A stretch of 64,000 nucleotides of DNA from Antedon mediterranea. Its lineage: Eukaryota; Animalia; Echinodermata. Made by a program: the position numbers and the translations under genes. Shown in pieces: positions 1,569 to 45,620 of the stretch (positions are counted from its first letter, which is position 1; every line of letters begins with the position of its first letter). The stretch spans positions 14,446,001 to 14,510,000 of the forward strand of contig NC_092672.1 in NCBI RefSeq assembly GCF_964355755.1. The letters are read 5' to 3'. The notes below the pieces were generated by a model. The model saw nothing but the letters and a program-made list of their open reading frames with translations. It did no database searches and was not told the origin of the DNA.

Positions 1569-4500
1569 ATTGATCCCGTAATACAACCAGGAAATGAGGG
1601 AATTGTTCACCATTTAATTGTAAAGGAGTGTCATGGACTTGGAAGGATTAATGGCACTGGAAGTCTTAATATAAAAAGTAAAGATATGTATATGTTTAAA
1701 TCCTGTTCCAAACAGATTTATGCATGGTCCGTTGGAGGAGGAGTAAGTCAAACAATAACTACATAAAATTGATTGTTTATACCATCTTTTTTACACACTT
1801 ATTTCATTCATATAAATCATTAATGTGTATCCATTGTCCTATGTTAAAATAATGCCGCGCGGTCTACATAGGCTACATAGAGCAGTCAATATTTATGAAT
1901 GAAACTATATTCAACGCATAAAAAACATTCATAATTTGTTTTATAATACACCTACTATGAATTATATCAACAAACTATGGGCCTAGTCACTCGGCCAGCA
2001 CTCTAGACATCAACTCCTTCAATCATCCACCAATCCATCCACCAACTCATTTAATCGTTCACCGTAATCCATCCATCAACTCCTTCAATCGTTCACCGTA
2101 ATCCATCCATCAACTTTTTCATTCGTCCATCCGTCCATTAACTTTGTCATTCGTCCAACAATCCATTCATTAACTTCGTCATTCGTTTACAAATCCTTTC
2201 ATCAACTTCGTCATTCGTCCATCAATCCATCCATCCATCAACTTCGTCATTCGTCCACCAATCCAATCATTAACTTCGTCATTCGTCCACCAATCCATCC
2301 ATCCATCAACTTCGTCATTCGTCCACCAATCAATCAATCCATCCATCAACTTCGTCATTCGTCCACGAATCCATCCATCCGTTCATCAACTTCGTCATTC
2401 GTCCACCAATCCATCCATCCATCAACTTCGTCATTCGTCCACAAATCCATCAAATTCGTCATTTGTCCACGAATCCATCCATCAACTTTGTCATTCGACC
2501 ACCAATCCATCCATTAACTTCGTCATTCGTCCACCAACTCTGTCATTCGTCCGCCAATCCATCCATCAATTTCGTTATTTGTTCACCAATCCGTTTACCA
2601 ACTTCGTCATTTGTCCACCAATCCATCCATCTACTTCGTCATTCGTATACCAATCCTTCCATCTACTTCGTCATTGGTCTACCAATTCATCCATCTACTT
2701 CGTCATTCGTCCATCAATCCCATCCATCAACTTCGTCATTCGTCCACCAATCCATCCACCAACTTCGTCATTCGTCCACTAATTCATCCATCTACTTCGT
2801 CATTCATTGTTCACCAATCAATCCATCAGTCATTCTTTCACTACTCCATCCATCAGCTCCGTCCTTTATTCACTACTCAACCCATCAGCTCTGTCCTTCG
2901 TTCACTAATCCATCCATCAGCTCCGTCGTCGTTCGTTCACTAAATCTATCTATCAGCTCCGTCCTTCATATACTCCATCCATAAGCTCCGTCCTTCGTTC
3001 ACTAATCTTTCCATCAGCTCCGTCGTTTGTTCACTAAATCTATTCATCAACTCATTCATTCGTAAATAAGTGAATACATCCATTCGTTAATCTATTTATA
3101 GATTATGGTTAATTCTGACATAGGCGAGCACAATGCAAAAAAAACGTTGGTACAAATCTCCGACTTGGATACCTACCTTATCTATCTGAGATGTACCGCG
3201 AAACGTAGATTTGATAACGTTAGTTTTCACATCGACGCTATTGTTCCATATTTCTATCTTAGGAAGATATTATAAAGAGTTTTTTAACAAAATTTATGAT
3301 TTCAACAGTAGATTTCAAACTCAATTTCAATTCTTCACGGGTCAAAGTAATTTCCGAGTTCACCTTGCAACAACCTGGTTTCAACTATTTTTCTCTCTTT
3401 TATACACAAAGGAGCAGTTAAAATAATAGATTTGACCCTAAAGGTGACTGGAAACAGGCACTTTCCATCAATCAATACAGTGTCCCTTTGGAAGAAGGAA
3501 GAAAAAACCGATAGTAGGACTGGAGCTTAGTTGCATAGCCATTTCAGTTTATTTGTTTATTTTAGGAACGGACCGCGCGTGTGTGAAGGTACAGTGGTTA
3601 AAAAATAAAAATTATACTGCAAATTAATAAAGATCAAATTAAATATAGGCCATAAAGAATCGGAATACATTGTGGGAAATAGTATTATAAAATTACATAG
3701 GGAGATTTGATGATAAGACATTTTGTTTAAAATCGAGTGAAATCCCGATAGTTGATTGAGTAAGCTGGAAGGAATAACTGTAGGCTATCTGTGTCCCGTT
3801 AGCGATTTTTTTTTTCGTACATAAGTTGGGGTCCCCCTCATGAAACGTCACAAAATAAACATGAATAATTCATCAGTTAAATATGTTGTTCCGTGTGCAC
3901 CCAAGCGTATAGCAACAAGAAGCGATTACACAACTGCGATACGATACTTTCTACAGTAGGCCTAGGATTCTAAGTCAATTCACGCGATTGCCTTTCGCGC
4001 ACTCTTCTTCACACAAAATGTGTCGAGTCGAGGCTAATCGACAGCTAGGCAAGACATTAAACCAGGGAAGAGTTAAATTACAGTTAAAATTTAACTCTTC
4101 CCTGATTAAACTAAGTAGTAATTCATTGTACATAGCCCAAAGAAAGCTTAGACCCACAAGAATAAAGAATGTGTATAATTTGTGTACTGTATTTTTTTTA
4201 ATTCTGCTATTTTATTATCAAACAATATGCAATGTACTCAAAGGAACTTTAAAAATGCGCGTATATGAACACATGAGATGGGAAGATTAGACCCACGAGA
4301 ATAAAAACTGTATTTTTGTGTAATGTTTATTGTTTAATTTTGCTGACTTATTACTCGGATTGTGTCATACCTATAACACACACACACACAGCTCTACTAG
4401 AATAGACATATGTTTAGAGACTAATAATTAGGCCTAGGCCTAATAGTATTAATAGAAACTATAATTTTAACACGTAATTCTTTAGTAATAAATTATATTA

Positions 4501-7500
4501 AAAACACTATTATAAACTAAAGGCTGATTATTTCGACAATCCACACAAAACGCCGCTATTCTTCTATGAAATCGCACGCCGCAACAACAGCGCGGAGATA
4601 GGCCTAGAATCGTACCGCACTTGTGTAATCACTTCTTGTTGCTATACGCTTGGGTGCACACGGAACAAGAACATTTAACTGATGAATTATTCATGTTTAT
4701 TTTGTGACGTTTCATGAGGGGGTCCCCAACTTATGTACGAAAAAAAAAATCGCGTCCCGTTAGGACCGAGATGTCTGCCCATGTTGCAAGCCGTAATGTC
4801 TTCTTTCTTGGGCCCACTCTATAACGGCAGTTAGTTTCAAAAGATGTTTAAATTAAATAATGTATTAATAATTATTAGGATGGTATTTATTTGAATAAAC
4901 GCCTCTCCAATAAAACATCACTTTGAATAATAATCATTATACTATTTGTAGTAGAATTCATCGCACTGTTATCTACAATTTACCAAGCATTTGTTATTCT
5001 TTTTTACCACTTTTCATATCTATTAGAGGATTTCATTTGATTATAAATGTTACCATAAAATTATTATTAAAACTAAAAAAATTAACATATATCCCTCGAA
5101 TAACCACACCCTCAAATAAACTCCGCCTCTCCAAAGGGCCCTACCAAACAATAAACACTATACTTTAAAATGTTATTAATCATCTAAAACACTGTGAAAC
5201 AGAGTAGTTTAGTTTTACGAATGTCAAGCATTTTCAATAATGGTAACCGACAGAAAACGTACAAGGAGAACATTTTTATCATTCCGAGAACCATCGTCTA
5301 CACTTCCTAGAGGGGGAGCGAGCGAAGTTTAGTGCTAATTACAGTTAGTGCTCAGTCGATATCATCCATTGACTAGTTATATTTTAGCGTGGTTCTTACA
5401 TATTACTATATTTATGCATTTATACATGGTGTCTGCCTTTCTGTTTAAAAGTCTAAAATACCAATCTTGTGTATAGGCATTGACGTTTCCAGAGCATGTG
5501 GGGTATCGGATAGGCGGTGAAAATGAGATAAAGTATTTGCAGTTAAACATACACTACGATAATCCTCAGTTTCTTACAGGTAAGTAGTAAATAAGGTACT
5601 TTAGCCCAAAGTTAACCTTGAGGTATTTCCTGATTACGTAATATCCGCCAGGTGTTTCTAATGAAGGTCGTTCATTTCCTGTTATTGTATTAGTTATGTA
5701 ACTTCCGCCAGGTGTTTCTAAAGAAGGTCGTTTCCGCCAGGTGTTTCTAATGAAGGTCGTTCATTTCCTGTTATTGTATTAGTTATGTAACTTCCGCCAG
5801 GTGTTTCTAATGAAGGTCGTTCTTTTCCTGGTTTCGTACTAGTTATGTAATTTCCGCCAGGTGTTTCTTTGTCTCTTTTTTATTAATTTTTCGGCGTGAG
5901 GTTCTGGTACGTGGTGAGTGACGTCATTACTTTATTTACGATTTAAGACGGTAAAACAAAGTGAAGCGGTTATTGTTGTACTATTCTCCAGTTGTTTTGT
6001 CTATTTTTACGTAGAGTATCTCTTTACAGTATTTCATTATGTCTGGAAGTATATATTTTTCGCAAGGGAGTTGTGTAGATACTGTTATAATAATTAGCGA
6101 TGATGAGGATACTGTTGTTGTTCCAGGCAGTGATATAGATGATTGTTACACGGCGGCCGAAGAGGTTATCCCCGTCGGTATAGAAGAAGGAGTCGAGAGG
6201 AGTAACAGGCCTACAAGTTGTATATTCACGTACGTGGACGAGGTGGAGAGAGAATTTTTGTTGAAAATGGAGCGTTTGGTTAAACAATTGTTTGCTGCTC
6301 AAGTGTTAGCCAAGTGTTGGGTTTTAAGTAAAGCGGCTTGTTATGGTTGTGAATTTGACAGGAGCAGTCAAAAAGATCATGATTTCTGTTGTATGAAGTC
6401 TCTAGAAGAACAGATTGACTATTTTTATCGGGAGGTTCTAGATAAGAAGTATGTTTCAGTCGATACCGTTTACAACGAACTAAATATGCAAGGAGAATAT
6501 TCATTGCCTCGGTATAGACATTTCGTTTATTTTCTTGTCAATACCCTGATTAATTCAGAGGCTATTTTTAAGCTGTTGTGCGAGGATATTTAAATTGTGT
6601 TTCGCACGTGTCACGGAAACGATTGACCGGAAATAGCAATCATTATCTTTTTAATTACTGAACTGGGCTACTTTCCTACTAAGCTGCATATATATCCTGA
6701 TTCAAGCGTAATCGTTCGTTTCACTCTCTGTAACTCTCTACAGTCTATAAACATGAGTTTCAACTGTTTACCTACTCCGAAATTAGCAATTGGTGAGAAA
6801 GCCCGTAGGACTATGAAAAGAGTTATGGGGAGTTCTAATGGTCAAGCTGACGAGTGTAGCAGTTTAAAATTACCAACGGTGGCTTCTACATCAGCGAATA
6901 TAATGGATTCTATAAAATCTTTTAACGGTCAAACTGACGACTGTAAAGGTTTTAAAAAACCAATGATGCCGTCTACTCACCCAAAGATTACCGTAACATC
7001 AACGAATCGGATTTTCTTGTCTGAAAAACGTCATGTGGTGGCTCAGCGATGGGGTGAAGTTGTTTCTGTTTGCCTCAGAGAGTATTACCAGACGGAAGAA
7101 AATGGTGTCTACAAACCTGGTCCTCTAGGTATTAATTTACCCGTTCTGCTGTGGCAAAAACTTTTCAACAATATTGATTTAATTATTCAGGCACTGGAAG
7201 ACTTACAAAGAGACATTAACATGGTGGAGGCAGTAAGAATCCCCATTTCGGACATAATTCATGTGGTAGTTAGTAACTGGAAAGAAGAACAATTTGTGTG
7301 TATTCGCCGCTATTACCAGTCTGAAGAAGGAGGCAAGTTTAAACCCGGTAAAAAAGGTGTAAACCTTCCAAAGAGTCAGTGGTTCAAGATAATTGAAAAA
7401 CACGGTGAAATACAAAAGATGATTGAGGAGGTTGGTAATGATAATGCGGCTACTGTTGACAAAAGCGATAATGGAGGACGTTTATTCAATTCAGAACATC

Positions 7501-10500
7501 AATTGCTACCCCCTGATAAGTTATCGGTGCAAAAGATAATAGGGGAAAATTTAGACTGTGATTACCTTCAACTTCTTGATAAAGGAGCAGCCGATACATT
7601 GTTTAAAAAATGTGAGGAAGAGATTGACTATTTTACCGGAGATCTTGCAAAGGTTAAAGTGTACGGAAAGTGGTTTAATATTCCTAGAAAACAGGTTAGT
7701 TCCATTATGTTTTTATCCGTGGTTTTGTATTAATGACTTGTTAATTACTTGTATATCGTTTCCTTTGTTTTTTCCATAATTTACCGCTGTGTAGCTATAG
7801 GTGTTACTTACTCTTTTTCTGTAAATTATTTTATTTGGGCGTGTTCATTTACGTCTCGTCAAATAATAAATGACTTTCTTTGTATGGTTTCCCCCTCTGC
7901 AGGTTTCGTTCGGCGATTCGGGCTTAACTTACAAATATTCAGGCAATACAGTACCAGCTTTACCGTGGCCACCATTCCTGAAAGATCTCCGCGACCTTTT
8001 AAAATCGGTTACAGGACATTACTTCAATTTTGTTTTGGTCAACCGGTAAATATTCTTGTTTATTATTTTATTCATTTATTTTATTTATTGATTAAAAGGG
8101 TCCATAGTTTACCTCTAAAACGATTGAACACTATCAGTATGATTTCTGCAATTTGTTAGATAAGATTGTTTTAATGGATAATTGGGGTTTTTTTAGTCTC
8201 ATCTTAAAATATTTTATTTTCTATTGTATTTTGTCGTTACTCTATAGATATGCTACTGGAAGTGATTACATTGGCGAACACAAAGATGATGAGAAAGACA
8301 TGAATCACTTTAGTCCAATCGCCTCTGTATCATTGGGGCAGACACGTATGTTTAGATTTCGACATGGTGATGCGCGAGGTAAGAGTCCCAAAAGAATAAT
8401 TGAGCCAGTAACTGTTGATCTTAAACACGGTACATTATTAATGATGAATTATCCCACTAATGAGTACTGGTACCATTCACTGCCTAAAAATCAATCCATC
8501 AAGCTACCAAGAATAAATCTCACGTTTAGAGATATTAAAAGATGAGAGAAATGTTACGCAAACACTACAGTCTTTAATAGTGATTGCAGATCTCAAGAAT
8601 ATCAACTGTTCATGATCTGTTCTCATTTAGTATAGTAGTACCAGTTGAATTATTTTTGTGATGATATTCCTAAAAATGGTTGTATTATTGTATTGATGTT
8701 AATTCACTTAGATCTAGGCCTAATTCCATTGATCGTTAATAATCATGTGATTGTTTGTCATTGCGTGGATAATGATTAACTTTACGAATAATTTCTTAAA
8801 AGTAACTTGTAATGTATTTCTAATTGTTAAATACAATTTTTTATGTTTTTAATAAGTGTGTAAGTTTTTCTTTAAAGCGTTTTAATCGTAATTTCAAGAG
8901 TAATAGGTACTTGTAACGTTTGAAACGGACTGGTAGATTAAACAGAACAAAAACAAAAAAAAAAACCCCGTTATAATAACACTAATAATAGCACATATTT
9001 TCGTACATGTATCAATGATTTATCTACATATGTGTGATTAATATTATTACAATAAAGACCATGTAGATCTACGATATTTTTACTGTAAGTGGTATTGTAA
9101 ATAAAAATTATGAATTCAATCGTGAGAAATGACCGATATCTGTGTATTATTTTATATTACTTTTATCATAATTGCAACAACATAAAAAAACTCAGAAATC
9201 ATAATTATCGAATACAGAAAGACGTTTTGGTTACCAATTGTATTTCTTGACACTTAACAGATTTTAACAGAAAACAAGACCTTCAACCGGAGCCAAAAAT
9301 GGAAATTTGTTTACGTGCAGGTTATTGCCATTAGATATTCTTAGAACTACTTTGGTTTTTATAAATATTGTCACTTTTTTTCTACACGTTTATCTACCGA
9401 GATTTTGTTTTTCTTTTTATGAATCTTCCGTTGTTCATAAGCATTATTAATTTGTACAGGCCTTGTTCTTCGCTTTGCAGGCTAAATCTTATAACGGCAT
9501 AGGCCTACATTTTAACGGTTCTTTGTAAATATCCTCTTATTGATTGTTACCTATAGTTCTCTGAATGTTTTAATTTACCGTAGATGATGAAAAAATCCCT
9601 TAATCTAGCACCATTTAAAAAAAAAAAAAAAAAAAAGGTTCCGCAGTAAATGGTTTATTTTTTATGGTATTGATGGAATCATCGAGGCACAATATTAGGC
9701 TGAAAAACATGACGTCACTATTTTAAACTGTTTATCATACAAGAACAATTAACCAATCACAAAACTGAGCTACTGATTTGCGTAGAAGTTTCTGGAAATG
9801 ACAAATTAAGGAAACACGTACACATTAATAAATATATATTAATTTTTATATAAATAATAGACAAAACAAAAGGAAATACACCAAACAAATCATTTTCGTT
9901 ATGAATTTATAATAACTTTAAATTTTGTCCATCACAGGAGACGCGTTTAGCGTTTTCCAATTGTAAAACAGTTTCGCATTGCGTCGCAACACATGCACAT
10001 ACTGCAAGTACTGTACCGTACTGTAACAAGTCTACTGATATGTATTTTGTTGGTCACTCATCATTTTAGCCAACACATTATTTAACTCATCAGGTGTAAT
10101 ATCTTTTCACAAAACCTTTATATCTTTACTTTTTCTTGACAACTCATAACAAACAAGAATAGTACTCTGAATGAGTGTGGGAGAGGTGTGTGGGAGTCCC
10201 ATTCAACTAAACCTTGCCAATTTGTACTCGACCTACGATAAAACCATTTTTTAAAAGTCAACATAGCGACGCGAGAAAAAATTGATAATAGGGATAAAAA
10301 GTTTTTCATGCATTGTTATACAGTAATCTATGTTTTTCGGTGTTTACACCATCTCATTGTTTATAATTACGTTTGTTAATATCGATAGTGTTTCTCTAGC
10401 AGAGTTATATTACTTGTTTATACTCGTATAGTTTGAAGTCCTCCATGTTGTTCGTATATTTTGTAAAAAGTGTACTTATGATTACTTTTAAAAACCAACT

Positions 10501-13500
10501 CATTTTATTTGCATTTTATCTACACCTCATGGTTAAAATGTGTTGTTTTTCATAGAGTGTGATGATGCTTAAAACGTTATACTAGTATAACCACCAAAAC
10601 GGTTTATTATCTGTAGGAAATCATCAATTGTAACATGCGGTAAACAATACAAATTAGTTTCACAAATTATTAAAAAATAGCACAATTGTTACAAATGCAT
10701 TTAAGAAAATAAAGGTGTACAGATTTTATTTCGAAAAAGTGTAGGCCTAGACCTACAAAGATAATTTTACATAAAGTGTACAGAATAAATTAACAAAAAA
10801 AAAAAAGGTCACACATACATTAAACTAATTCTTATAAAAGTGTACAGTGTACTTTGGTTATCAGGTATATCAACTTTAATATTTTAAGTATAGGGCCTAT
10901 TTGTGGCCAACACACGGTCCCTTTTAATTGGGGGTAGAGGTCTTTTGCCGTTCGTAATTCAAACTGTTCGTAAAATTGAAGTTAATATTCTGAGATTAGG
11001 CCTATAGCCTATGATTGCAGCTTATACTAGTCAACGGTCTAAAAGAGCTGTAGTGCAGGAGGCGAAACATAAAAGTTCATTAATAAACAGTATATTATAT
11101 TATAACGATAAAGAAACGAATGTACGATACACCAATATAGCAATACAATAACTGATTAACTGAAAACTTGAAGTCTACTGTATTCCTACAATCATTCAAG
11201 TAGACATTGTTTGCTGAGTGTATGGTACTTTCTCCAAAGAGAATTCGAACGATGTGCTTTCGGACGTGTTTCTACGATTATCAGAACGGGTCGATAATGA
11301 AAAAAAAAAAAACCCAAAACAAACAAACTGTCTACTAACTCCCAAAAAAAAAAATCAATACCTATTAAATAAACTGAACCTACCCCACTAAATAATCTCT
11401 TCCATACATCAAAATCGACCGAAAATGATCTGGACATTGAAAAGTGGACACGGTCGTCTGTTCTTCTTTTCTGTTTCCACGGCTTGGGACGACATCCCTG
11501 TTAGTGATGTACGGTAGCCATGCGGTCTACACACTTATGATGACCACATCGCATAACATGTTCAGGGAACTTATTTTTCAACTCTCTGATACAATGTTTA
11601 AATACAAGTAGACTGGAAACCATTTAGGAACAGGGGGTTTCTAATAATAAAAGTTGTTTAAAACTTTAGTTATTGTCAAGGGGAATTGTTCAAGACTTGG
11701 AGTAAAAATGGTCAAGACCGGGGGAAAATGGTCAAGACAGGAAGAAAATTAAATTTCACCATTTTATAAGTTTATAGTCATTTATTGTGTTAAAATTCAT
11801 TTATTATTAGACCTGTATACGTATTCAATAACAAAAAATAACCTTGTTACATTAATAACATATCTTTAGTGGTTAAGGTAATATATTATTTCTCTGTATA
11901 CTGACGTCACAAATATAGATAAAGAGAGACTGTAACTAAATGTTTATTACTTATTAGGGTTACAGGGAGAGTTCCATGCAACATTAAAAGGTCAATTAAT
12001 GAGCCACCCAACTTAATTAAGTACCGTTACTTAACAAATGTGCTCAAACTCAATAAGGGTTACAAATCTACAAGAGACTGTAACTAAATGTTTATTACTT
12101 ATTAGGGTTACAGGGAGAGTTCCATGCAACATTAAAAGGTCAATTAATGAGCCACCCAACTTAATTAAGTACCGTTACTTAACAAATGTGCTCAAACTCA
12201 ATAAGGGTTACAAATCTACAAAAGAGGACATTTTATTTTTATACCAGGGTTAAACATTAAAAGGTCAATTACTTGAACTCTGAACATGGAAAAAATACTT
12301 GCGTCAATTGACACTTGAACTTGACCTCTACACAAGGACGAATAGACTGTGTCAATTAACCATGACCTCTGGTCCCAAAAGCATGGGGGTTTCAGTTTTC
12401 GACTTCGTCGAAATTTGAGAGCCCCCCAATAAAACGGCTGACCAGAGGTCATGGTTAATTGACACAGTCTATTCGTCCTTGTGTAGAGGTCAAGTTCAAG
12501 TGTCAATTGACGCAAGTATTTTTTCCATGTTCAGAGTTCAAGTAATTGACCTTTTAATGTTTAACCCTGGTATAAAAATAAAATGTCCTCTTTTGTAGAT
12601 TTGTAACCCTTATTGAGTTTGAGCACATTTGTTAAGTAACGGTACTTAATTAAGTTGGGTGGCTCATTAATTGACCTTTTAATGTTGCATGGAACTCTCC
12701 CTGTAACCCTAATAAGTAATAAACATTTAGTTACAGTCTCTTGTAGATTTGTAACCCTTATTGAGTTTGAGCACATTTGTTAAGTAACGGTACTTAATTA
12801 AGTTGGGTGGCTCATTAATTGACCTTTTAATGTTGCATGGAACTCTCCCTGTAACCCTAATAAGTAATAAACATTTAGTTACAGTCTCTCTTTATCTATA
12901 TTTGTGACGTCAGTATACAGAGAAATAATATATTACCTTAACCACTAAAGATATGTTATTAATGTAACAAGGTTATTTTTTGTTATTGAATACGTATACA
13001 GGTCTAATAATAAATGAATTTTAACACAATAAATGACTATAAACTTATAAAATGGTGAAATTTAATTTTCTTCCTGTCTTGACCATTTTCCCCCGGTCTT
13101 GACCATTTTTACTCCAAGTCTTGAACAATTCCCCTTGACAATAACTAAAGTTTTAAACAACTTTTATTATTAGAAACCCCCTGTTCCTAAATGGTTTCCA
13201 GTCTACTTGTATTTAAACATTGTATCAGAGAGTTGAAAAATAAGTTCCCTGAACATGTTATGCGATGTGGTCATCATAAGTGTGTAGACCGCATGGCTAC
13301 CGTACATCACTAACAGGGATGTCGTCCCAAGCCGTGGAAACAGAAAAGAAGAACAGACGACCGTGTCCACTTTTCAATGTCCAGATCATTTTCGGTCGAT
13401 TTTGATGTATGGAAGAGATTATTTAGTGGGGTAGGTTCAGTTTATTTAATAGGTATTGATTTTTTTTTTTGGGAGTTAGTAGACAGTTTGTTTGTTTTGG

Positions 13501-16500
13501 GTTTTTTTTTTTTTCATTATCGACCCGTTCTGATAATCGTAGAAACACGTCCGAAAGCACATCGTTCGAATTCTCTTTGGAGAAAGTACCATACACTCAG
13601 CAAACAATGTCTACTTGAATGATTGTAGGAATACAGTAGACTTCAAGTTTTCAGTTAATCAGTTATTGTATTGCTATATTGGTGTATCGTACATTCGTTT
13701 CTTTATCGTTATAATATAATATACTGTTTATTAATGAACTTTTATGTTTCGCCTCCTGCACTACAGCTCTTTTAGACCGTTGACTAGTATAAGCTGCAAT
13801 CATAGGCTATAGGCCTAATCTCAGAATATTAACTTCAATTTTACGAACAGTTTGAATTACGAACGGCAAAAGACCTCTACCCCCAATTAAAAGGGACCGT
13901 GTGTTGGCCACAAATAGGCCCTATACTTAAAATATTAAAGTTGATATACCTGATAACCAAAGTACACTGTACACTTTTATAAGAATTAGTTTAATGTATG
14001 TGTGACCTTTTTTTTTTTTGTTAATTTATTCTGTACACTTTATGTAAAATTATCTTTGTAGGTCTAGGCCTACACTTTTTCGAAATAAAATCTGTACACC
14101 TTTATTTTCTTAAATGCATTTGTAACAATTGTGCTATTTTTTAATAATTTGTGAAACTAATTTGTATTGTTTACCGCATGTTACAATTGATGATTTCCTA
14201 CAGATAATAAACCGTTTTGGTGGTTATACTAGTATAACGTTTTAAGCATCATCACACTCTATGAAAAACAACACATTTTAACCATGAGGTGTAGATAAAA
14301 TGCAAATAAAATGAGTTGGTTTTTAAAAGTAATCATAAGTACACTTTTTACAAAATATACGAACAACATGGAGGACTTCAAACTATACGAGTATAAACAA
14401 GTAATATAACTCTGCTAGAGAAACACTATCGATATTAACAAACGTAATTATAAACAATGAGATGGTGTAAACACCGAAAAACATAGATTACTGTATAACA
14501 ATGCATGAAAAACTTTTTATCCCTATTATCAATTTTTTCTCGCGTCGCTATGTTGACTTTTAAAAAATGGTTTTATCGTAGGTCGAGTACAAATTGGCAA
14601 GGTTTAGTTGAATGGGACTCCCACACACCTCTCCCACACTCATTCAGAGTACTATTCTTGTTTGTTATGAGTTGTCAAGAAAAAGTAAAGATATAAAGGT
14701 TTTGTGAAAAGATATTACACCTGATGAGTTAAATAATGTGTTGGCTAAAATGATGAGTGACCAACAAAATACATATCAGTAGACTTGTTACAGTACGGTA
14801 CAGTACTTGCAGTATGTGCATGTGTTGCGACGCAATGCGAAACTGTTTTACAATTGGAAAACGCTAAACGCGTCTCCTGTGATGGACAAAATTTAAAGTT
14901 ATTATAAATTCATAACGAAAATGATTTGTTTGGTGTATTTCCTTTTGTTTTGTCTATTATTTATATAAAAATTAATATATATTTATTAATGTGTACGTGT
15001 TTCCTTAATTTGTCATTTCCAGAAACTTCTACGCAAATCAGTAGCTCAGTTTTGTGATTGGTTAATTGTTCTTGTATGATAAACAGTTTAAAATAGTGAC
15101 GTCATGTTTTTCAGCCTAATATTGTGCCTCGATGATTCCATCAATACCATAAAAAATAAACCATTTACTGCGGAACCTTTTTTTTTTTTTTTTTTTTAAA
15201 TGGTGCTAGATTAAGGGATTTTTTCATCATCTACGGTAAATTAAAACATTCAGAGAACTATAGGTAACAATCAATAAGAGGATATTTACAAAGAACCGTT
15301 AAAATGTAGGCCTATGCCGTTATAAGATTTAGCCTGCAAAGCGAAGAACAAGGCCTGTACAAATTAATAATGCTTATGAACAACGGAAGATTCATAAAAA
15401 GAAAAACAAAATCTCGGTAGATAAACGTGTAGAAAAAAAGTGACAATATTTATAAAAACCAAAGTAGTTCTAAGAATATCTAATGGCAATAACCTGCACG
15501 TAAACAAATTTCCATTTTTGGCTCCGGTTGAAGGTCTTGTTTTCTGTTAAAATCTGTTAAGTGTCAAGAAATACAATTGGTAACCAAAACGTCTTTCTGT
15601 ATTCGATAATTATGATTTCTGAGTTTTTTTATGTTGTTGCAATTATGATAAAAGTAATATAAAATAATACACAGATATCGGTCATTTCTCACGATTGAAT
15701 TCATAATTTTTATTTACAATACCACTTACAGTAAAAATATCGTAGATCTACATGGTCTTTATTGTAATAATATTAATCACACATATGTAGATAAATCATT
15801 GATACATGTACGAAAATATGTGCTATTATTAGTGTTATTATAACGGGGTTTTTTTTTTTGTTTTTGTTCTGTTTAATCTACCAGTCCGTTTCAAACGTTA
15901 CAAGTACCTATTACTCTTGAAATTACGATTAAAACGCTTTAAAGAAAAACTTACACACTTATTAAAAACATAAAAAATTGTATTTAACAATTAGAAATAC
16001 ATTACAAGTTACTTTTAAGAAATTATTCGTAAAGTTAATCATTATCCACGCAATGACAAACAATCACATGATTATTAACGATCAATGGAATTAGGCCTAG
16101 ATCTAAGTGAATTAACATCAATACAATAATACAACCATTTTTAGGAATATCATCACAAAAATAATTCAACTGGTACTACTATACTAAATGAGAACAGATC
16201 ATGAACAGTTGATATTCTTGAGATCTGCAATCACTATTAAAGACTGTAGTGTTTGCGTAACATTTCTCTCATCTTTTAATATCTCTAAACGTGAGATTTA
16301 TTCTTGGTAGCTTGATGGATTGATTTTTAGGCAGTGAATGGTACCAGTACTCATTAGTGGGATAATTCATCATTAATAATGTACCGTGTTTAAGATCAAC
16401 AGTTACTGGCTCAATTATTCTTTTGGGACTCTTACCTCGCGCATCACCATGTCGAAATCTAAACATACGTGTCTGCCCCAATGATACAGAGGCGATTGGA

Positions 16501-19500
16501 CTAAAGTGATTCATGTCTTTCTCATCATCTTTGTGTTCGCCAATGTAATCACTTCCAGTAGCATATCTATAGAGTAACGACAAAATACAATAGAAAATAA
16601 AATATTTTAAGATGAGACTAAAAAAACCCCAATTATCCATTAAAACAATCTTATCTAACAAATTGCAGAAATCATACTGATAGTGTTCAATCGTTTTAGA
16701 GGTAAACTATGGACCCTTTTAATCAATAAATAAAATAAATGAATAAAATAATAAACAAGAATATTTACCGGTTGACCAAAACAAAATTGAAGTAATGTCC
16801 TGTAACCGATTTTAAAAGGTCGCGGAGATCTTTCAGGAATGGTGGCCACGGTAAAGCTGGTACTGTATTGCCTGAATATTTGTAAGTTAAGCCCGAATCG
16901 CCGAACGAAACCTGCAGAGGGGGAAACCATACAAAGAAAGTCATTTATTATTTGACGAGACGTAAATGAACACGCCCAAATAAAATAATTTACAGAAAAA
17001 GAGTAAGTAACACCTATAGCTACACAGCGGTAAATTATGGAAAAAACAAAGGAAACGATATACAAGTAATTAACAAGTCATTAATACAAAACCACGGATA
17101 AAAACATAATGGAACTAACCTGTTTTCTAGGAATATTAAACCACTTTCCGTACACTTTAACCTTTGCAAGATCTCCGGTAAAATAGTCAATCTCTTCCTC
17201 ACATTTTTTAAACAATGTATCGGCTGCTCCTTTATCAAGAAGTTGAAGGTAATCACAGTCTAAATTTTCCCCTATTATCTTTTGCACCGATAACTTATCA
17301 GGGGGTAGCAATTGATGTTCTGAATTGAATAAACGTCCTCCATTATCGCTTTTGTCAACAGTAGCCGCATTATCATTACCAACCTCCTCAATCATCTTTT
17401 GTATTTCACCGTGTTTTTCAATTATCTTGAACCACTGACTCTTTGGAAGGTTTACACCTTTTTTACCGGGTTTAAACTTGCCTCCTTCTTCAGACTGGTA
17501 ATAGCGGCGAATACACACAAATTGTTCTTCTTTCCAGTTACTAACTACCACATGAATTATGTCCGAAATGGGGATTCTTACTGCCTCCACCATGTTAATG
17601 TCTCTTTGTAAGTCTTCCAGTGCCTGAATAATTAAATCAATATTGTTGAAAAGTTTTTGCCACAGCAGAACGGGTAAATTAATACCTAGAGGACCAGGTT
17701 TGTAGACACCATTTTCTTCCGTCTGGTAATACTCTCTGAGGCAAACAGAAACAACTTCACCCCATCGCTGAGCCACCACATGACGTTTTTCAGACAAGAA
17801 AATCCGATTCGTTGATGTTACGGTAATCTTTGGGTGAGTAGACGGCATCATTGGTTTTTTAAAACCTTTACAGTCGTCAGTTTGACCGTTAAAAGATTTT
17901 ATAGAATCCATTATATTCGCTGATGTAGAAGCCACCGTTGGTAATTTTAAACTGCTACACTCGTCAGCTTGACCATTAGAACTCCCCATAACTCTTTTCA
18001 TAGTCCTACGGGCTTTCTCACCAATTGCTAATTTCGGAGTAGGTAAACAGTTGAAACTCATGTTTATAGACTGTAGAGAGTTACAGAGAGTGAAACGAAC
18101 GATTACGCTTGAATCAGGATATATATGCAGCTTAGTAGGAAAGTAGCCCAGTTCAGTAATTAAAAAGATAATGATTGCTATTTCCGGTCAATCGTTTCCG
18201 TGACACGTGCGAAACACAATTTAAATATCCTCGCACAATTAACAGCTTAAAAATAGCCTCTGAATTAATCAGGGTATTGACAAGAAAATAAACGAAATGT
18301 CTATACCGAGGCAATGAATATTCTCCTTGCATATTTAGTTCGTTGTAAACGGTATCGACTGAAACATACTTCTTATCTAGAACCTCCCGATAAAAATAGT
18401 CAATCTGTTCTTCTAGAGACTTCATACAACAGAAATCATGATCTTTTTGACTGCTCCTGTCAAATTCACAACCATAACAAGCCGCTTTACTTAAAACCCA
18501 ACACTTGGCTAACACTTGAGCAGCAAACAATTGTTTAACCAAACGCTCCATTTTCAACAAAAATTCTCTCTCCACCTCGTCCACGTACGTGAATATACAA
18601 CTTGTAGGCCTGTTACTCCTCTCGACTCCTTCTTCTATACCGACGGGGATAACCTCTTCGGCCGCCGTGTAACAATCATCTATATCACTGCCTGGAACAA
18701 CAACAGTATCCTCATCATCGCTAATTATTATAACAGTATCTACACAACTCCCTTGCGAAAAATATATACTTCCAGACATAATGAAATACTGTAAAGAGAT
18801 ACTCTACGTAAAAATAGACAAAACAACTGGAGAATAGTACAACAATAACCGCTTCACTTTGTTTTACCGTCTTAAATCGTAAATAAAGTAATGACGTCAC
18901 TCACCACGTACCAGAACCTCACGCCGAAAAATTAATAAAAAAGAGACAAAGAAACACCTGGCGGAAATTACATAACTAGTACGAAACCAGGAAAAGAACG
19001 ACCTTCATTAGAAACACCTGGCGGAAGTTACATAACTAATACAATAACAGGAAATGAACGACCTTCATTAGAAACACCTGGCGGAAACGACCTTCTTTAG
19101 AAACACCTGGCGGAAGTTACATAACTAATACAATAACAGGAAATGAACGACCTTCATTAGAAACACCTGGCGGATATTACGTAATCAGGAAATACCTCAA
19201 GGTTAACTTTGGGCTAAAGTACCTTATTTACTACTCAGGTAGGCTAACTAAATGTTTCCTTAATCAAAAGTGTAGTTTATGAGTGGTATACAGCGAATAA
19301 GCTACCGAATATCACAAGCTGCAGTATATATATATCTATATTATAAGTGAGAGAGTTTGTACGTCTGTTTGTCTGTTTGTTTGTTTGTTCGTTATACAAA
19401 TTTTTGTTACTGCATGTAACCTTACATATGGGGTACCAAAATGACCGTAATTGTACCGGGAAGGTTCTAAACTAGGGACCAAGTTGGTCCAAGTTAGGGA

Positions 19501-22500
19501 CCAAATGTTTTGTTGTTGTTAACGTTTTCCGCCCGTTTTCCGTCTTCCGACATTACGCTTTCCACAATTTGTTTCCATTTTTTCTGTTTATGGCAGGATG
19601 GTTTGTTATTGTGTTAGTGTCTACTAGTCCTTGTAAGTCTTTCTTTATTTGATTCATCCAGTTATTTCTTGGTCTTCCTACGGGTCGTTTTACTTTCCAT
19701 ATAGTTTCCTTCATTGTTTGTTTGATTGGGGTATCATCCGGTAATCTAATTATGTGTCCATACTATTTTTAGTCTCCTTCGTTTAATTCTTTTACTCCAT
19801 TCTTCTTGTTTTGTTATCTCGTATATTTTCGTGTTACACACTCTATCTGTTAATTTAATATCTATCATCTTTCGCAACATTTTAGTGAGTGAGTGAGTGG
19901 CCGAGCGGTTAAGACAGTGGAACCGTAATCATGTACTAGCCATAACATCGGCAGGGGTTCGAGGCTCACTCACTCCATGGTTCTGGTGGTAGAACGAGTC
20001 TTCTCGGATAAGGACTATAAACCGTAGGTCCAGTGTACACAACTTGCTCGTGTGCACTTTAAAGAACCTAGTACATCTTTCGAGACGAGTAGGGGGTTAC
20101 CCCGGTGTATTAGTACATCACAGCCACTGATCACCAACTGGGCCCTCTGGGAGATCAGTCTTTGACTGAAGAGGTCACCCAGTATAAAGATAAAGATTTA
20201 AAAAAACAACATGACCAAAATGTGGTCAAAATGGCCCACTTTCGATGTTTGTTCGTTATACAAATTTCTGTTTCTGCACGTAACCATACATATAGGGTAT
20301 CAAAATGATCGCAATTGTACCCGGAAGGTTCTAAACTACATTTCAAAAATTCTCCTGGAAAAATTCTTTTTGGTTTGTGATGTCATTTTTGCTTGGGCTC
20401 GGGGTTGTAGGCTATCGAAATGTAAAATTATACTACAAAAGTTTTACAGTATTTGAATTATCCTCAGGAAGGCCTTTGGGGAAATATAGATTTAGATATA
20501 CATATTTTAACCATTAACCAATATGACACCTATTCATTTACACATTTAGCAAAGTACTTTACCCATATCCAGCTATGTACCGTTACTGTGTTCAACTACA
20601 TCACCATGCCTCCAAGGAAAAACGCCCATTGTGGGAGAGGGGGGTTGGGAGATAGGTTTTGGTTGTTTGGGTTCAGGGGATTTTACTTAGGCTAGGAGTG
20701 GCTAACATAATTCGTACTTGAACCGTCTTAAAAACATCACCCAGTATCTGGGTATGTTGGGAGGAGAAGCGAAAATACTGGCGTAAGAAGAGAAAGAAGG
20801 CTGGGGGGCCGCAGTATAAAAATTATATATTTTAATTATCAGCCAATATGACACCTATTCATTTACACAGTTTAATTGAATCTGTCTTTCACTGGAAAGA
20901 GTGTGGGGTGTTATTAAGGGGTGCAGGTTGTAATATAATAGTTCTGTGATATTAAATTACAGGGGGGTTTTTAGGTAAATATTATATATTTTAATTGGAT
21001 CTACCAATTAGGTCAGCTGCTGTTGATTCCTTGTTTTAATGTACGCAGCTCTCACAACATACAGAAATTAAAAGAGTAAAATTAATGTTTAAAGTACTTC
21101 CTTTAATATGCACCATCCACAATAATGTCAACATTTGCAAAGTAATTCCAAAACAAATAAAATCCCAGAGATATCCAATAGTAATAAAGTGTAAATAATA
21201 AACTGTAGAGCTAGAGCTGGTAAAAGAAAAATAATGGCTGCTGTGCACTTGCACAGACCTGTACCCTTGCACAGGCAAACAACAACTGAACAGAACAAAA
21301 GAAAATTAGGACAAAGGAAAACAAAGGAGAAACAGCACACTGTGCACACTTGGAAAATAATATGTAAATGAGAATGCAAATAAGAAAGTAACAGAATAAA
21401 TGAATATTCATAGGGCAGAAACTTCTATAATAATAGGAAATAAAGTAATATAAAATAAATACATGCACTCTGCAGTAACATATATCTTTTACATTCAATT
21501 ATTGATCAAAGTGGATTATTATGTATATCTTTAATTCTCATTACCTTATTTTGATTATTTGTAAACCCATTCTTTACCATTATTTACTTAAAATTAGACT
21601 GTATTTTAATTATGTTAGGTATTCGTGACAGCTCGGGAGTTCGTATTTATTATACACCAACCCTTCGTCAATATGATTCAAGTATGATGATGATTGGTTT
21701 CCCTGGATCATCTTTGTTTATAATTCCCCCTAGAGAAGAAGCCTTTCGGGTATATGGTTCCTGTAGTGCCACATGTACAAAGCAGGTATTATTTTCAGTT
21801 TTATTCTTTTAAGCCTCAAAACAAGAAAAAAAAAACAATTTTGACAAATGAATACAGTAATGAAAATGAAATACCAGAGAAAGTAGGCCTACCATTATTA
21901 TGATATCCAGTTTTGTATCAATAACGATATAATTATTTGGCATCTTTTGTTGTTTTTGTTGTGGTTAAATATTGTCCCCTTGATAGACGTGTCCCCTGAG
22001 GGATTTGCTGTAGTATCAATATTTCCCCTCAGTGTCCCCTAAATCGGGGTTTCCCAAAAAGGGGTTCTACTGTACATATGTGGTGGTTTAACCGCAGGAA
22101 TAAACTATATTCATCGGTTGTGCAATTTAATATTTAATGTTTTTACATCACAATTAGGTCCAACCCCACGGGCTTTCATATTATAGATTATATTATGTAT
22201 ATTTGTTTGTGCTAAAATTAGTTTGTTTTAAATGCTCCACCATTTTGTCACTATAACCCAGTAGGTTGGAGAGCTGGATTAGGCCCTAAGCAATTAAAAC
22301 CAGGTTCAACACATAATAATGTAACAGTAAAGTATCAATTTATCTATTTATTTTATGATTTGAACATGATAATCCATCTCACAGATGTTGTCTGGGGAAG
22401 AAATGAAGATATTTGCCGTCAGTTTCCATGCACATTTAGCAGGTATGCTTAGAGAGAACGTTTGCTCATTAGTTATACAATGTTTGCTATTACACGCAGT

Positions 22501-25500
22501 TTCAAAATACAACACTATATAAATAAAAAATAATGAGATGAATCTAATAATGGACAACCGTAAGATATTAGTCAATACCTTCATTGGTAAAGGTTATTGG
22601 CGGCTCTATCGATTAACAATTTGATATTGTTATTAAACATGTTAATACATACGTTGTGCAAATACATTTAAATTGAAGACTGTCTTATTATTTCCTGTTA
22701 TCTCTCACAATATAATATATAGTTTATGTAGATGTTATAAGTTTATCAGCAAATTTGAATTACACGTTGTGAAAAAATAGTCAACATTTTGGTAACTTAT
22801 AGAGTGTAGGCCTAATATTTGTCTTTTTGATAGCCTGCTTTAAAATATTATTATATCATTTTTTGTAGTTTAAATAATATGAACTTATTGAGGGTTAGAT
22901 CATAGTTGAGCCTAAAGAAACACAATGAAAATATATATATATTAGATTAGCGTTAATTGTTAGGTTATTATTGATAATCAGGTTAGTTAGATCACGTCAT
23001 GGCTAAAATTAGATTCTCTATTTTTCTTAAACTACAATCTTATGAGAAATCAGATCTAAATTAACAACACTAAAATGATATTCACTTTTTACAGCAATTG
23101 CTATGCGCCTAACACACTATCGCAATGGAAAATATATCGGCGAAATTTCACGAGATAAAACATATGACTTTAATTTACAAGAATTTCGATACCTAAAAGA
23201 CGAGTGGATTGTCAAACCGGTAAGAATCACTTTATTTTAAATTCACATTTCAAAAATAAAGTTTAGTATTTATAGATTTTTTTCCGATAACATATTTTAA
23301 AAGTTATACTGTTTTATATTCATTTGTTTCAAAACATATTATAGGGAGATGATCTACTAGTTGAATGTGTATACAAGACGATGGATAGAGAAAAGGTTAC
23401 ATTTGTAAGTAGGCCTACTTATTATTAACAATATTCCTAATGGTGTAAATTATTTGTGTATATTAAACTAAAACGTTACTACGGCAACGGTAATATTTTG
23501 TTCGGAATGGAGGCTAGCGATAGTTTCTCAGAGCGCCGGAACGAATCCGGTCACGATGTGAAAGTTTGAACTTTATACATGCTATTCAGACCATTAAACC
23601 AAAGCTGTATTTTAAAGTAAAATTCAACACAAACATTTAAGTAAATAAAGTATTAATTATTATTACGAAGTAACGAATACAAATTGAAAACCACATACTT
23701 AAATCTTGATTAAGCTTAGTATATGTCACTTTTTTCCCTTCACTACTAACTCCGTAGCAACTGTATTGCAGTTTTGAAAATGTATTGCTCTGTTCGATAT
23801 TTTATTAAATTGTTTTTCAATATAATATTATTTTTCAAGGGAGGACTTTCGTCGAGAGATGAAATGTGCTCGGCGTTTATATTTTACTATCCTAAAGTAA
23901 ACGCTGGCAATTGCTACAGCGTTCCGCAACAAAAGAACCTTCATCTGAACCTTGATAATTCAAAGTAAGTTACGGTAAATTATTGGTTTTGTTGAGGTCC
24001 GGTATTCAATGTGGGTGTCGTGTAACTCCATTCCATGACGCTCATTCTGCTGTACCACTGTGGGGTTATATCAATAAAGCATAGGAATTTAGGACCAGGA
24101 ATTACAGTACCCTTTTCAACATTTTGTTTCGCTTTCCGTAATCATTTTATTGTTTATTATTTAATATTAATTCTATAATCATATAGAACTTCAACTCAGT
24201 TAAAACAACTTTTATGTATCTATCTTAAAATTGTACATTTATATTTTAATCACATTTAGTTCTAATGTCCCTAATTAAATATAGGCCCACTCTGAATCTC
24301 CTCTTAAATAGGAACTTATGCAGATTGAAAATGTCCTTGACAACACTGTCCCCAAATTATTGAATAGGTCGGAACCCTCTGGCAAATTATTGATAGATAT
24401 TGAATCGCAAAAGAGTCAGAACAACTGTCCATTACATTCTCCTCCGTGATAAGTGGGCACAGTAGCCTAAGATGCACGTAGAAGCACAAACTTCAGATAT
24501 AGGAACAAAGATAAATCTGATCTATAAAAATGTATAAATACATATAAGTATAGTGGTAATATAGCTTGGTTAATAGCTCAACAACATACAGCTTCTTACG
24601 TAAGGCGATGTTTGGAATTCGAAAAAGCTGATGCGGTCCTTACCTTCCACAATTGTATATGTAATCTACGGAACAATCTTGCCTATGGATGGCAATTTTT
24701 GTTTAAAATCTGGAATTTATAAAGGAACCGCACCTTCTTTCTTTGTCAACATATAGGCTACTCGTATGAATGGATGGAATATTTTATTTACAGTATAAAA
24801 ATGTCATTGGCCAAATAAACTAAAACGTCAGGTAAACCACCACCACTAGTAAGTAAGTGTAGGCCTATTATAATAATTACTCACAGCAGAATATTATGTA
24901 ATCTCTAATTTTTTTTACAATTATGTAGAGATGTACGTGAATCAATAGAAAGCATAGAATGGACAGATGAAAAAAGAAATGTTATCAGAAACTGGTGGTA
25001 TGATACACCCAGAATGTCACGGTGTACAAGCAATTTCCTTGAGGTAAGATATTATGGTATTACGATAATAGTGAATTTAAATAGGCTAAGTCGAAGTGAT
25101 ATGTTTAGTGAAAATTAATTCTTAATAAATTGTGCTGTGTTCTTTTGAAAGGGGAAATATAAAAACAATGTAGGCCTATATTGAAAGTTTTTTCGCCACT
25201 CTTAATAAACCCTTTTCTTTTGATACATTGAGTTCCATTTTTATCTCCAACTTGTATCTTTAATGTCAGTTAGGCCTATTAGGCCTACAAAAAAGAAATA
25301 TTGATTTAATAATGTATTTCTCTTTGATTTTAGGGATATAAAAATTATTATGAAGAAACAAGTTTGAAAGAGATCATTGCCTTACAAAATGGATCAGTTG
25401 AGGAGAGTAACAGTAATTGTTCAAGTTACGAAGACCGTTCAACAAGTCAGGGAAGAGTGAATCTCACTGTACCGAAATTAAATACAGTCAACTCTCCCAA

Positions 25501-25591
25501 TACCGGACACCCTTGGGCGGGCATATATTTTCCGGTTTTTCGAAAGTCCGGTTTCCTGAAAACATTTTTAAAGTCATCACGTTGTCACTGA
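1569..25591 (+). CDS. MOXD1: DBH-like monooxygenase (MOXD1-like copper type II monooxygenase), 3' part, 9 exons in window; last exon interrupted by a MITE
   Basis: GT-AG exons with consistent phases: 1569-1742 (IDPVIQPGNEGIVHHLIVKEC...YAWSVGGG), 5477-5579 (ALTFPEHVGYRIGGENEIKYLQLNIHYDNP), 21619-21785 (IRDSSGVRIYYTPTLRQYD...IPPREEAF), 22385-22442 (IFAVSFHAHLA), 23095-23219 (RNGKYIGEISRDKTYDFNLQE), 23345-23404 (GDDLLVECVYKT), 23840-23964 (GGLSSRDEMCSAFIFYYP), 24929-25043, 25334-25591 (current stop; ancestral stop 26829). CuH ligands (HH...H) and CuM ligands (HxH...M) are present. N-terminal exons lie upstream of the window. Confidence 0.9.
2005..3060 (+). repeat. Degenerate minisatellite/low-complexity array (~28-36-bp unit CCATCCATCAACTTCGTCATTCGTCCACCAAT)
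   Basis: Dozens of visible copies with variable numbers of (CCAT) units. It explains the spurious ORFs at 2463-2984, 2579-2782 and 2611-2943. Confidence 0.9.
3802..4753. mobile_element. Non-autonomous Mutator/MULE-like element, ~130-bp TIRs, 9-bp TSD
   Basis: TSD GTCCCGTTA at 3793-3801 and 4754-4762. TIR GCGATTTTTTTTTTCGTACATAAGTTGGGG...GCAACAAGAAG is mirrored at ~4632-4753. Confidence 0.88.
5644..5868 (+). repeat. Subterminal direct repeats of the palindromic element, left end (5 x TCCGCCAGGTGTTTCT, ~60-bp period)
   Basis: Core motif at 5644, 5704, 5733, 5793 and 5853. Confidence 0.92.
6039..6593 (+). CDS. Element-encoded 184-aa protein: acidic N-terminus with SIM-like VIIISDDED, and a CxxC-x5-SQ-x2-H-x2-C putative Zn-binding motif
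   Basis: ATG-initiated, intronless ORF with coding-like composition. The CYGCEFDRSSQKDHDFCC motif resembles, from my recollection, small accessory proteins of Polintons/adintoviruses. Mirrored at 18153-18779. Confidence 0.7.
   Translation: MSGSIYFSQGSCVDTVIIISDDEDTVVVPGSDIDDCYTAAEEVIPVGIEEGVERSNRPTSCIFTYVDEVEREFLLKMERLVKQLFAAQVLAKCWVLSKAACYGCEFDRSSQKDHDFCCMKSLEEQIDYFYREVLDKKYVSVDTVYNELNMQGEYSLPRYRHFVYFLVNTLINSEAIFKLLCEDI
6753..8545 (+). CDS. ALKBH2: Fusion of two tandem PC4 (ssDNA-binding) domains with an ALKBH2-like Fe(II)/2-oxoglutarate DNA dioxygenase, 3 exons, ~460 aa (left arm copy)
   Basis: Exons 6753-7694, 7903-8045 and 8248-8545 join in frame via GT-AG (CAG|GTTAGT..TGCAG; CCG|GTAAAT..TATAG). 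PC4 repeats: VSVCLREYYQTEENGVYKPGPLGINLPVLLWQKL and FVCIRRYYQSEEGGKFKPGKKGVNLPKSQWFKI. AlkB part: VYGKWFNIPRKQ|VSFGDSGLTYKYSG...FNFVLVNR|YATGSDYIGEHKDDE...IASVSLG...WYHSLP...RINLTFR, collinear with vertebrate ALKBH2, with HxD...H and RxxxxxR intact. Confidence 0.92.
11925..12220 (+). repeat. 148-bp tandem duplication next to the central hairpin (left arm)
   Basis: AGAGACTGTAACTAAATGTTTATTAC...GGGTTACAAATCTACA at 11925-12072 and 12073-12220. A partial third copy (ACATTAAAAGGTCAATTA) follows at ~12254. Confidence 0.92.
12375..12439. other. Central spacer of the giant palindrome: imperfect stem-loop
   Basis: Perfect arms stop at ...CATGACCTCTGGTC (12374) and resume at GACCAGAGGTCATG (12440). 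The spacer contains TTTCGAC-TTC-GTCGAAA (12397-12413), extended by GGGGGTTTCAG/TTGAGAGCCCCC pairing with G:T pairs and a bulge. Confidence 0.9.
12594..12889 (-). repeat. 148-bp tandem duplication (right arm mirror)
   Basis: Reverse complement of 11925-12220. Confidence 0.9.
16269..18061 (-). CDS. ALKBH2: Tandem PC4 - ALKBH2-like fusion, 3 exons (right arm copy)
   Basis: Mirror of 6753-8545. Exons 18061-17120, 16911-16769 and 16566-16269; ORF-track translations are identical to the left copy. Confidence 0.92.
18153..18779 (-). CDS. Right-arm copy of the acidic CxxC-H-C protein, 208 aa (C-terminus frameshifted by a 4-bp indel)
   Basis: Identical to 6039-6593 up to ...AIFKLL. Four extra bases at 18237-18240 (AATT) change the tail from CEDI* to IVRGYLNC...LFNY*. 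Confidence 0.68.
   Translation of the reverse strand: MSGSIYFSQGSCVDTVIIISDDEDTVVVPGSDIDDCYTAAEEVIPVGIEEGVERSNRPTSCIFTYVDEVEREFLLKMERLVKQLFAAQVLAKCWVLSKAACYGCEFDRSSQKDHDFCCMKSLEEQIDYFYREVLDKKYVSVDTVYNELNMQGEYSLPRYRHFVYFLVNTLINSEAIFKLLIVRGYLNCVSHVSRKRLTGNSNHYLFNY
18950..19174 (-). repeat. Subterminal direct repeats, right end (5 x AGAAACACCTGGCGGA)
   Basis: Mirror of 5644-5868. Confidence 0.92.
19550..19880 (-). mobile_element. RTE-clade LINE 3' fragment
   Basis: Minus-strand translation near 19640-19780 gives ...YGHIIRLPDDTPIKQ...KVKRPVGRPRNNWMNQIKKDL, typical of the C-terminus of RTE-type ORF2. Confidence 0.65.
19890..20199 (+). mobile_element. tRNA-derived SINE with a Deu/Nin-like central domain
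   Basis: A-box TGGCCGAGCGGTTAAG and B-box GGTTCGAGGC. Core CGGATAAGGACTATAAACCG...AAAGAACCTAGTACATCTTTCGAGACGAGTAGGGGGTTACCCCGGTGT resembles the Deu domain. Short repeat tail (TAAAGA). The 3' half recurs inverted at ~45510-45620. Confidence 0.75.
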
Positions 25592-26792: not shown

Positions 26793-27336
26793 TATAATAC
26801 TCTTTGCATTCCTTTTTCTTGTATTTTAAACATGTATTCCCTCCAATCAAAAGACTTTTTATGCTGTACCATGTTTATAATGTAAAGTGCCGCCGAAATG
26901 AGCGCTATAAGTGTTAATGTATGTTATGTTTTGCGGAAAATGAATCAAACTGGGCTTGATTTGATATTCTTGTTGTGTATAAAGGATATATACATTCTAT
27001 ACTGGAACATGATGTTGCTGTGTGGAACCCGTCATCTTGAAACCTTCAGGGATAGTTTTTTATACAAAGGATCGTCTTTGCTCAATGCATTACCTTTCGA
27101 AATCCAAAACTCAACATCATTTAATATTTTTAAAGTTACAACAAAAAAATATCTCACCCCTATTCCTTTTGAGGGGGGGGGGGGGGTGTTCTATTTTTCG
27201 TTTTTGTATCGTTCCCGTTTTTTCATGCATGTCAGCCTCGGCTGTTTTGATTCACCTTTATTAAACTAAGATTAATAAAAAAAATTAAAAACCTTTTACC
27301 GGTCTTAGACCAATGTCTGTTATCCCTTACTAAGGT

Positions 27337-45509: not shown

Positions 45510-45620
45510 TTATATTTATATTTATACTGGGTAACCTCTTCAGTCAAAGACTGGTCTCCCAGAGGGCCCAGTTGGTGATCAGTGGCTGTGATGTACTAAT
45601 ACACCGGGGTAACCCCCTAC
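45510..45620 (-). mobile_element. 5'-truncated copy of the Deu-like SINE
   Basis: Reverse complement of ~20089-20190 (GTAGGGGGTTACCCCGGTGTATTAGTACATCACAGCC...CCCAGTATAAA). Confidence 0.8.

Follow-up and report, generated by a model that had tools for sequence, protein, structure and literature searches.

A near-perfect palindrome occupies positions 5583-19235 (13,653 bp) of the window, i.e. the whole 64,000-bp stretch of Antedon mediterranea DNA that was analysed, and separates two exons of a host gene; a 65-bp spacer lies at its centre. The features of the locus, in order along the window, are:

5477..5579, + strand: host exon adjoining the insertion on its left, from a DBH/MOXD1-like copper monooxygenase gene (PF01082, E 1e-8)
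5577..5582, + strand: left target-site duplication, 6 bp, CAGGTA, straddling the host splice donor
5583..12374, + strand: left arm, 6792 bp, starting AGTAGT (flank-arm junction found in contigs of runs X1 and X3)
5621..5868, + strand: subterminal repeat units of 60-89 bp, mirrored at 18950-19197; the unit number differs among run contigs
6039..6593, + strand: ORF1, left copy, a small protein with a CxGC..SQxxHxxC motif and no Pfam family
6753..8545, + strand: three-exon gene (6753-7694, 7903-8045, 8248-8545) for a PC4-PC4-ALKBH2-like dioxygenase of 460 aa
11925..12220, + strand: two tandem 148-bp units, mirrored at 12589-12889; tandem joint found in X3 and X5
12221..12374, + strand: centre-proximal arm with iterated short motifs, the motifs having been chosen after inspection
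12375..12439, no strand: asymmetric centre, 65 bp, located by arm comparison and folding and also found in runs X3, X5, X6 and X9; it comprises a 7-bp stem (12397-12403/12407-12413), a 3-nt loop, a 3-bp stem, a G5/C6 clamp and unpaired flanks
12440..19235, - strand: right arm, 6796 bp, terminating in ACTACT
16269..18061, - strand: mirror copy of the PC4-PC4-ALKBH2 gene
18153..18779, - strand: ORF1, right copy, 208 aa from its ATG
19236..19241, + strand: right target-site duplication, 6 bp
21619..21809, + strand: next exon of the same host gene (PF03712, E 0.002, which is below the curated cut-off; 3' boundary approximate)

The ends identify the element as a Polinton/Maverick derivative: it has terminal inverted repeats with (AGT)2//(ACT)2 ends and a perfect 6-bp target-site duplication (chance of a 6-mer match by composition, 1.6e-4), and it belongs to a dispersed multicopy family with insertion polymorphism. 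According to PMC8097293, this combination of ends and perfect 6-bp duplications is the commonest Maverick signature, with (AG)3//(CT)3 as an alternative end, and the size of the element is near the 15-25 kb given for autonomous Polintons in PMC6431247. Where it departs from a Polinton is in its symmetry: the terminal repeat makes up 99.5% of the element, and the genes are doubled in mirror image, one of them with introns. The arms, described in the earlier note as perfect outside the centre, differ from each other by 0 substitutions but also by one 4-nt indel (at 6576 / 18238-18241). Toward the centre the arm changes in character, with one 7-mer occurring 4 times in the 154 nt of 12221-12374 versus 0 times in 6025 nt, and with five of the six AGGTCA sites of the left arm falling within 11989-12368. 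In addition, a 30-40-nt stretch within 12256-12297 recurs in unrelated contexts in X3 and X5 contigs; this stretch could be part of a different repeat family, or of an element that differs in its interior.

The three-exon gene contains two PC4 domains (PF02229) and a 2OG-Fe(II) oxygenase domain (PF13532) by Pfam, and its best match among solved structures (PDB) is ALKBH2 (E 6e-72). Each of its exons matches the A. mediterranea protein XP_071943874.1 with 0 mismatches; all 5 matches and all 17 cluster members found as relatives of this cargo protein are likewise from A. mediterranea, on contigs of 7 different lengths, and one cargo sequence is present as two accessions on a single contig, as two arms would give. 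ORF1 found no match in a word search, and the 4-nt indel gives its left and right copies different ends; six of its residues (CxGC..Q..H..C) are invariant across 24 relatives. Among these 24 are a fusion of the Cys/His motif with a PC4 domain (P0023) and an annotated protein of the crinoid Anneissia japonica, so that ORF1 and PC4 may also occur together elsewhere. ESM Atlas matches to ORF1 at 0.85 were set aside for low recognition.

No further ORF of at least 150 codons is present in the element. None of its frames encodes a polymerase, integrase, capsid protein, resolvase or Rep, and a Pfam scan of five element ORFs gave no core-gene match; in contrast to an autonomous Polinton, the element thus has no gene for a protein-primed PolB, integrase, capsid, ATPase or protease. 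Searches further afield returned no locus related to the cargo protein or ORF1 alignments among viral contigs, no locus related to the one ORF1 relative queried against metagenomes, and no contig in either collection linking ORF1 or the cargo to Polinton core genes. Non-autonomous Polinton families do exist, in that the names Polinton-1N1_DR and Polinton-N1A_NV appear in PMC9341505 and PMC11296320. The element is best read as a palindromic, non-autonomous Polinton satellite of the fold-back kind, dependent on a helper.

The insertion lies 3 bp into an intron of the DBH/MOXD1-like gene. Since the first bases of the element complete a consensus GTAAGT donor (window 5577-5588), host splicing is probably preserved; a contig of run X5, a run taken as RNA by guess only, matches 5477-5582 only and then, by eye, the exon at 21619, so that the exons are joined across the element. 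Runs X1 and X3 represent one sample (S1), possibly the source of the assembly, and run contigs in general collapse the two arms, drop rare variants and give summed depths. In both X1 and X3 a flank contig stops at 5582 and a junction contig covering 5553-5612 shows 0 differences from the window. The depth of the junction is about half that of the flank (19.1 vs 45.7 in X1, 149.2 vs 281.3 in X3), and subtraction leaves a second allele at 18.1 (X1) and 145.0 (X3); the insert therefore looks heterozygous in S1. Other flanks adjoin 5583 in three X1 contigs. Variant forms of the element's ends and abundant copies of the subterminal repeats also occur in the run contigs. For a second organism, B (run X6), a genomic contig continues 177 letters beyond 5582 and depth is zero at 5591-5604, and we therefore take its site as empty. 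Upstream, 5283-5327 is the end of a very abundant short repeat, and many contigs of all four runs diverge at 5323-5328.

A palindrome of this kind could in principle be produced by the assembly or by long-read fold-back, and the 0 substitutions across 6.8 kb and the lack of a single run contig covering the whole element are what such an artefact would give. This explanation is largely refuted, and we regard it as highly improbable: the mirror ends exactly at the 6-bp duplication, beyond which the flanks are unrelated; the element is flanked by consecutive exons of one host gene, joined in the X5 contig; and short-read contigs contain both the left junction and the centre, the latter in a second organism too.

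Several other repeats lie in the window. A young Gypsy-like LTR retrotransposon at 48201-56660 has 576-bp LTRs that are 100% identical, TG..CA ends and GTAG on both sides, and carries gag (zf-CCHC) and a 1574-codon pol frame. Two 1317-bp direct copies at 25483-26799 and 29030-30346 are 100% identical with differing flanks and no coding match examined, and are probably two recent insertions of a small element. A further small element (33017-34250) has 73-bp terminal inverted repeats and a nested 69-bp inverted repeat with a 65-nt spacer (33171-33373); no sequence link between it and the palindrome was found. What we take to be a tRNA-derived SINE-like sequence lies at about 19890-20150, with an inverted partial copy at 45512-45620, and minisatellite arrays occupy 1986-3070 (about 32-bp units) and 41797-42098 (about 27-bp units).

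Complementarity between the arms ends at 12374 and resumes at 12440, leaving the 65 nt of the spacer between. The earlier note had proposed that this spacer still folds, and folding as single-stranded DNA bears this out on both strands, at -11.4 kcal/mol with z scores of -2.65 (+) and -2.47 (-). The 7-bp inner stem has pairing probabilities of 0.92-1.0 on both strands and the next 3 bp (12392-94/12416-18) of 0.8-0.94; the G/C clamp, described earlier as G5/C5 and actually G5/C6, forms with a slipping register, its single pairs reaching 0.17-0.52 on the + strand and up to 0.77 on the - strand. The fold beats chance, but modestly: 3 of 200 shuffles on each strand fold as well, as do 0 of 673 65-mers in the arm and 15 of 2004 elsewhere in the window, and a centred stem of at least 7 bp is present in 0.54% of 56,909 window 65-mers and in 26 of 20,000 shuffles. 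The axis of the inner stem (12405) is 2 nt off the axis of the arms (12407), and the two halves of the spacer align to each other as a degenerate inverted repeat. Spacer G+C is 48%, versus 34% in the arm, and only the spacer flanks are A-rich. There is no meaningful second copy of the spacer within the 64-kb window, a 24-nt pattern of the centre had 0 occurrences in metagenome contigs, and Rfam gave 0 matches over 5500-12500. The 17-nt inner hairpin matched 16 viral-contig loci; as each agrees at only 26-35 of the 65 spacer letters, these were dismissed as chance.

Copies of the centre at other sites were compared over 12073-12480 in four of the ten listed runs (X3, X5, X6 and X9); five others (X2, X4, X7, X8 and X10) lay outside the comparison. 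An X3 contig covering 12357-12425 has 0 differences and a depth of 1317, equivalent to about 9 haploid copies, and the summed X3 depth at 12381-12394 allows up to about 22, summed depths being crude. In organism B a single contig runs from arm through spacer to arm (12342-12472) with 4 differences, at about one haploid copy. X9 contributes a small share (0.11) in two contigs, each 151 nt long and of depth 6; these have letters in common with organism B, and X9 is not counted as a third host. The same centre is thus present at the same place in about nine or more haploid copies in X3 and in an organism without this insertion, and because it turns up both away from this locus and in another host, it is fixed and inherited and not a random junction. 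Random template switching, for which unrelated and unstructured centres at variable positions would be expected in other copies, does not describe what was found.

The earlier note had proposed to look for conservation of the structure itself and for compensatory changes, and the variants listed show no clear sign of either. Organism B departs from the window at 1-3 of the 65 spacer letters and, in nearby arm contigs, at 7 of 213 and at 5 of 112 plus a gap. No excess of conservation over the arms is measurable for the spacer, so that these figures do not show selection on the fold, and common descent accounts for the conservation equally well. Among the variants listed, none is a two-sided compensatory change: the only spacer substitution, at 12414, is one-sided and would add an eighth pair to the stem in place of a T:T mismatch, and copies differ in the length of the C run, with longer runs among these variants. 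Some copies also have one-sided deletions beside the spacer, an X5 contig keeping the spacer and skipping about 530 bp of one adjoining arm and an X9 contig about 470 bp. These observations, together with the degenerate inverted repeat of the spacer halves and a fold of only z -2.6, would suit a neutral fossil, in which the centre dates from one old snap-back event and the family moves as any non-autonomous Polinton would, its two terminal repeats being very long. Its arms would be alike through youth and chromosomal gene conversion, its fold would be a decayed tip, and its asymmetry would merely stabilise the insert. We think this reading unlikely, because the iterated motifs cluster in the arm adjoining the centre and because of the way in which the arms share their letters.

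At five positions near the centre the window carries a minority letter in both arms. The letters at 12175 and 12242 are in no contig of the four runs, an absence explicable by the dropping of rare variants from contigs, and those at 12290, 12302 and 12331 account for 5-9% of summed X3 depth; the 12175 letter is present in all four 148-bp units. Within one copy the two arms thus resemble each other more than they resemble the rest of the family, and the mirroring of minority letters in both arms indicates that some process resets the arms, in line with the earlier proposal that they are kept alike, although assembly polishing could partly account for the zero substitutions. For the neutral fossil, five mirrored minority letters in a copy at half depth in S1, one of them in all four 148-bp units, amount to much conversion for a young insert. 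The reset appears to stop short of the tip: in organism B, a loop contig from 12342 and an arm contig to 12371 imply that position 12442, 3 bp into the arm, is altered on one side only, and hence that changes beside the tip escape it. A rare X3 variant with mirrored changes flanking the spacer, at 4-6% of single-copy depth and in separate contigs, is a hint only. Nor is symmetry always restored, as seen in the one-sided arm deletions of X5 and X9 and in the indel between the window arms.

How the reset might occur bears directly on the role of the centre. The suggestion that copying through the hairpin regenerates identical arms in each cycle does not hold as stated, since plain read-through copies each arm from itself and differences persist; an extra step is needed, whether fold-back repair, a template switch past the loop, or resolution. 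The last of these would be of the poxvirus type: the 13.65-kb dimer junction would extrude a cruciform, and cutting would release two 6.8-kb monomers with hairpin caps (flip and flop), either of which could rebuild a perfect palindrome from its one arm. This would account directly for the arm reset, and the fixed centre with iterated motifs on its flanks fits the geometry of the vaccinia concatemer junction as set out in PMC8956199. That source describes vaccinia resolution as involving a viral Holliday-junction resolvase, a conserved resolution sequence and an AT-rich hairpin. Here, in contrast, no ORF for a resolvase, Rep or protelomerase is found in the element, the spacer is more G+C-rich than the arm, and no monomer or nick was observed, and a host junction nuclease would have to be assumed; we consider resolution of this type quite improbable. 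The orientation of genomic copies, proposed as a test, is uninformative: where arms and ends are identical, reading an insert on the opposite strand already gives its flop form.

The likeness to a viral hairpin telomere is therefore partial. As in vaccinia (PMC8956199), a tip with incomplete pairing lies midway in a long palindrome and adjoins repeats and short motifs. However, the tip is G+C-rich relative to the arms and not AT-rich, no Holliday-junction resolvase gene is present, the other end is an open integrase substrate with Polinton termini, and the palindrome is the integrated unit and not a transient intermediate. A parvovirus also differs, in that the element has no HUH Rep/NS1 or capsid gene, its hairpin is central and its ends are open. 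The open ends are of the integrase type, and the element is derived from Polintons/Mavericks and not related to poxviruses, ASFV or parvoviruses. A further parallel is offered by snap-back defective interfering genomes, which are near-wholly self-complementary, have a terminal origin at both ends and depend on a helper (PMC6140465). Unlike these, the element is DNA, is chromosomally integrated and is inherited, in a family whose members share a single fixed centre and whose cargo genes are intact, where a defective interfering genome is a transient by-product. Of the further idea that the centre is the turn-around or resolution site of a replicon, what stands is that it is fixed and inherited within a mobile replicon; the resolution half lacks an encoded resolvase, and selection on the fold is unsupported. 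On our best reading the centre acts like the turn-around of a fold-back molecule and is not a demonstrated viral telomere.

Replication of Polintons/Mavericks in animals is largely a model, comprising excision, single-strand fold-back and protein-primed synthesis. Against this background we think it probable, on balance, that the spacer is the fixed, inherited mid-point of a Polinton-ended palindrome and the turn-around of a fold-back molecule that is copied and integrated by a helper Polinton. A freed single strand would snap back into a 6.8-kb hairpin, its open end a duplex Polinton origin and its closed end an imperfect loop. The protein-primed polymerase of the helper would start at the open end and displace through the arm, the loop and the second arm, and the product would be a 13.65-kb duplex with two origins. 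Off the chromosome, one arm could template the other, via repair of the fold-back heteroduplex or via a template switch just past the loop; such arm-to-arm correction would reset identity and miss the tip, so that asymmetry would be confined to the tip. The retrovirus-like integrase of the helper would then insert the duplex with a 6-bp duplication. With PC4 as a binder of melted DNA and AlkB enzymes able to undo 1-methylA and 3-methylC, the PC4-ALKBH2 cargo would be suited to a stage at which single strands are exposed. Neither a helper Polinton nor an extrachromosomal molecule is among the sequences examined. More tentatively still, the element may stand for a stable class of animal DNA satellites with a 6.8-kb 'clothes-peg' genome, protein-primed at one end as in a Polinton and closed at the other by a poxvirus-like imperfect hairpin, that would integrate as a replicative dimer and whose captured PC4-ALKBH2 would bind and repair the single-stranded stage; this extension is conceivable but doubtful.

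Kapitonov and Jurka in 2006 reportedly described zebrafish non-autonomous Polintons with very long terminal repeats, and novelty in print is therefore uncertain. Within the portions of the literature searched we found no paper on whole-palindrome Polinton derivatives or on PC4-AlkB cargo: palindromes are not mentioned in the main texts of PMC8097293, PMC6431247, PMC10748475 and PMC11296320, as far as these were available, and the available parts of PMC4028283, PMC5499653, PMC8502044 and PMC9341505 have nothing on either subject.

As a young and polymorphic derivative that is palindromic throughout and has a fixed loop, the element offers a direct test of the Polinton replication model, which predicts an off-chromosome 13.65-kb duplex, a 6.8-kb snap-back and a closed end that can be mapped. 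The element also shows that satellites of this kind are able to carry two mirror copies of a DNA-repair fusion gene that is intact and spliced, and that a palindrome with 6.8-kb arms and a 65-bp spacer persists inside a host intron.
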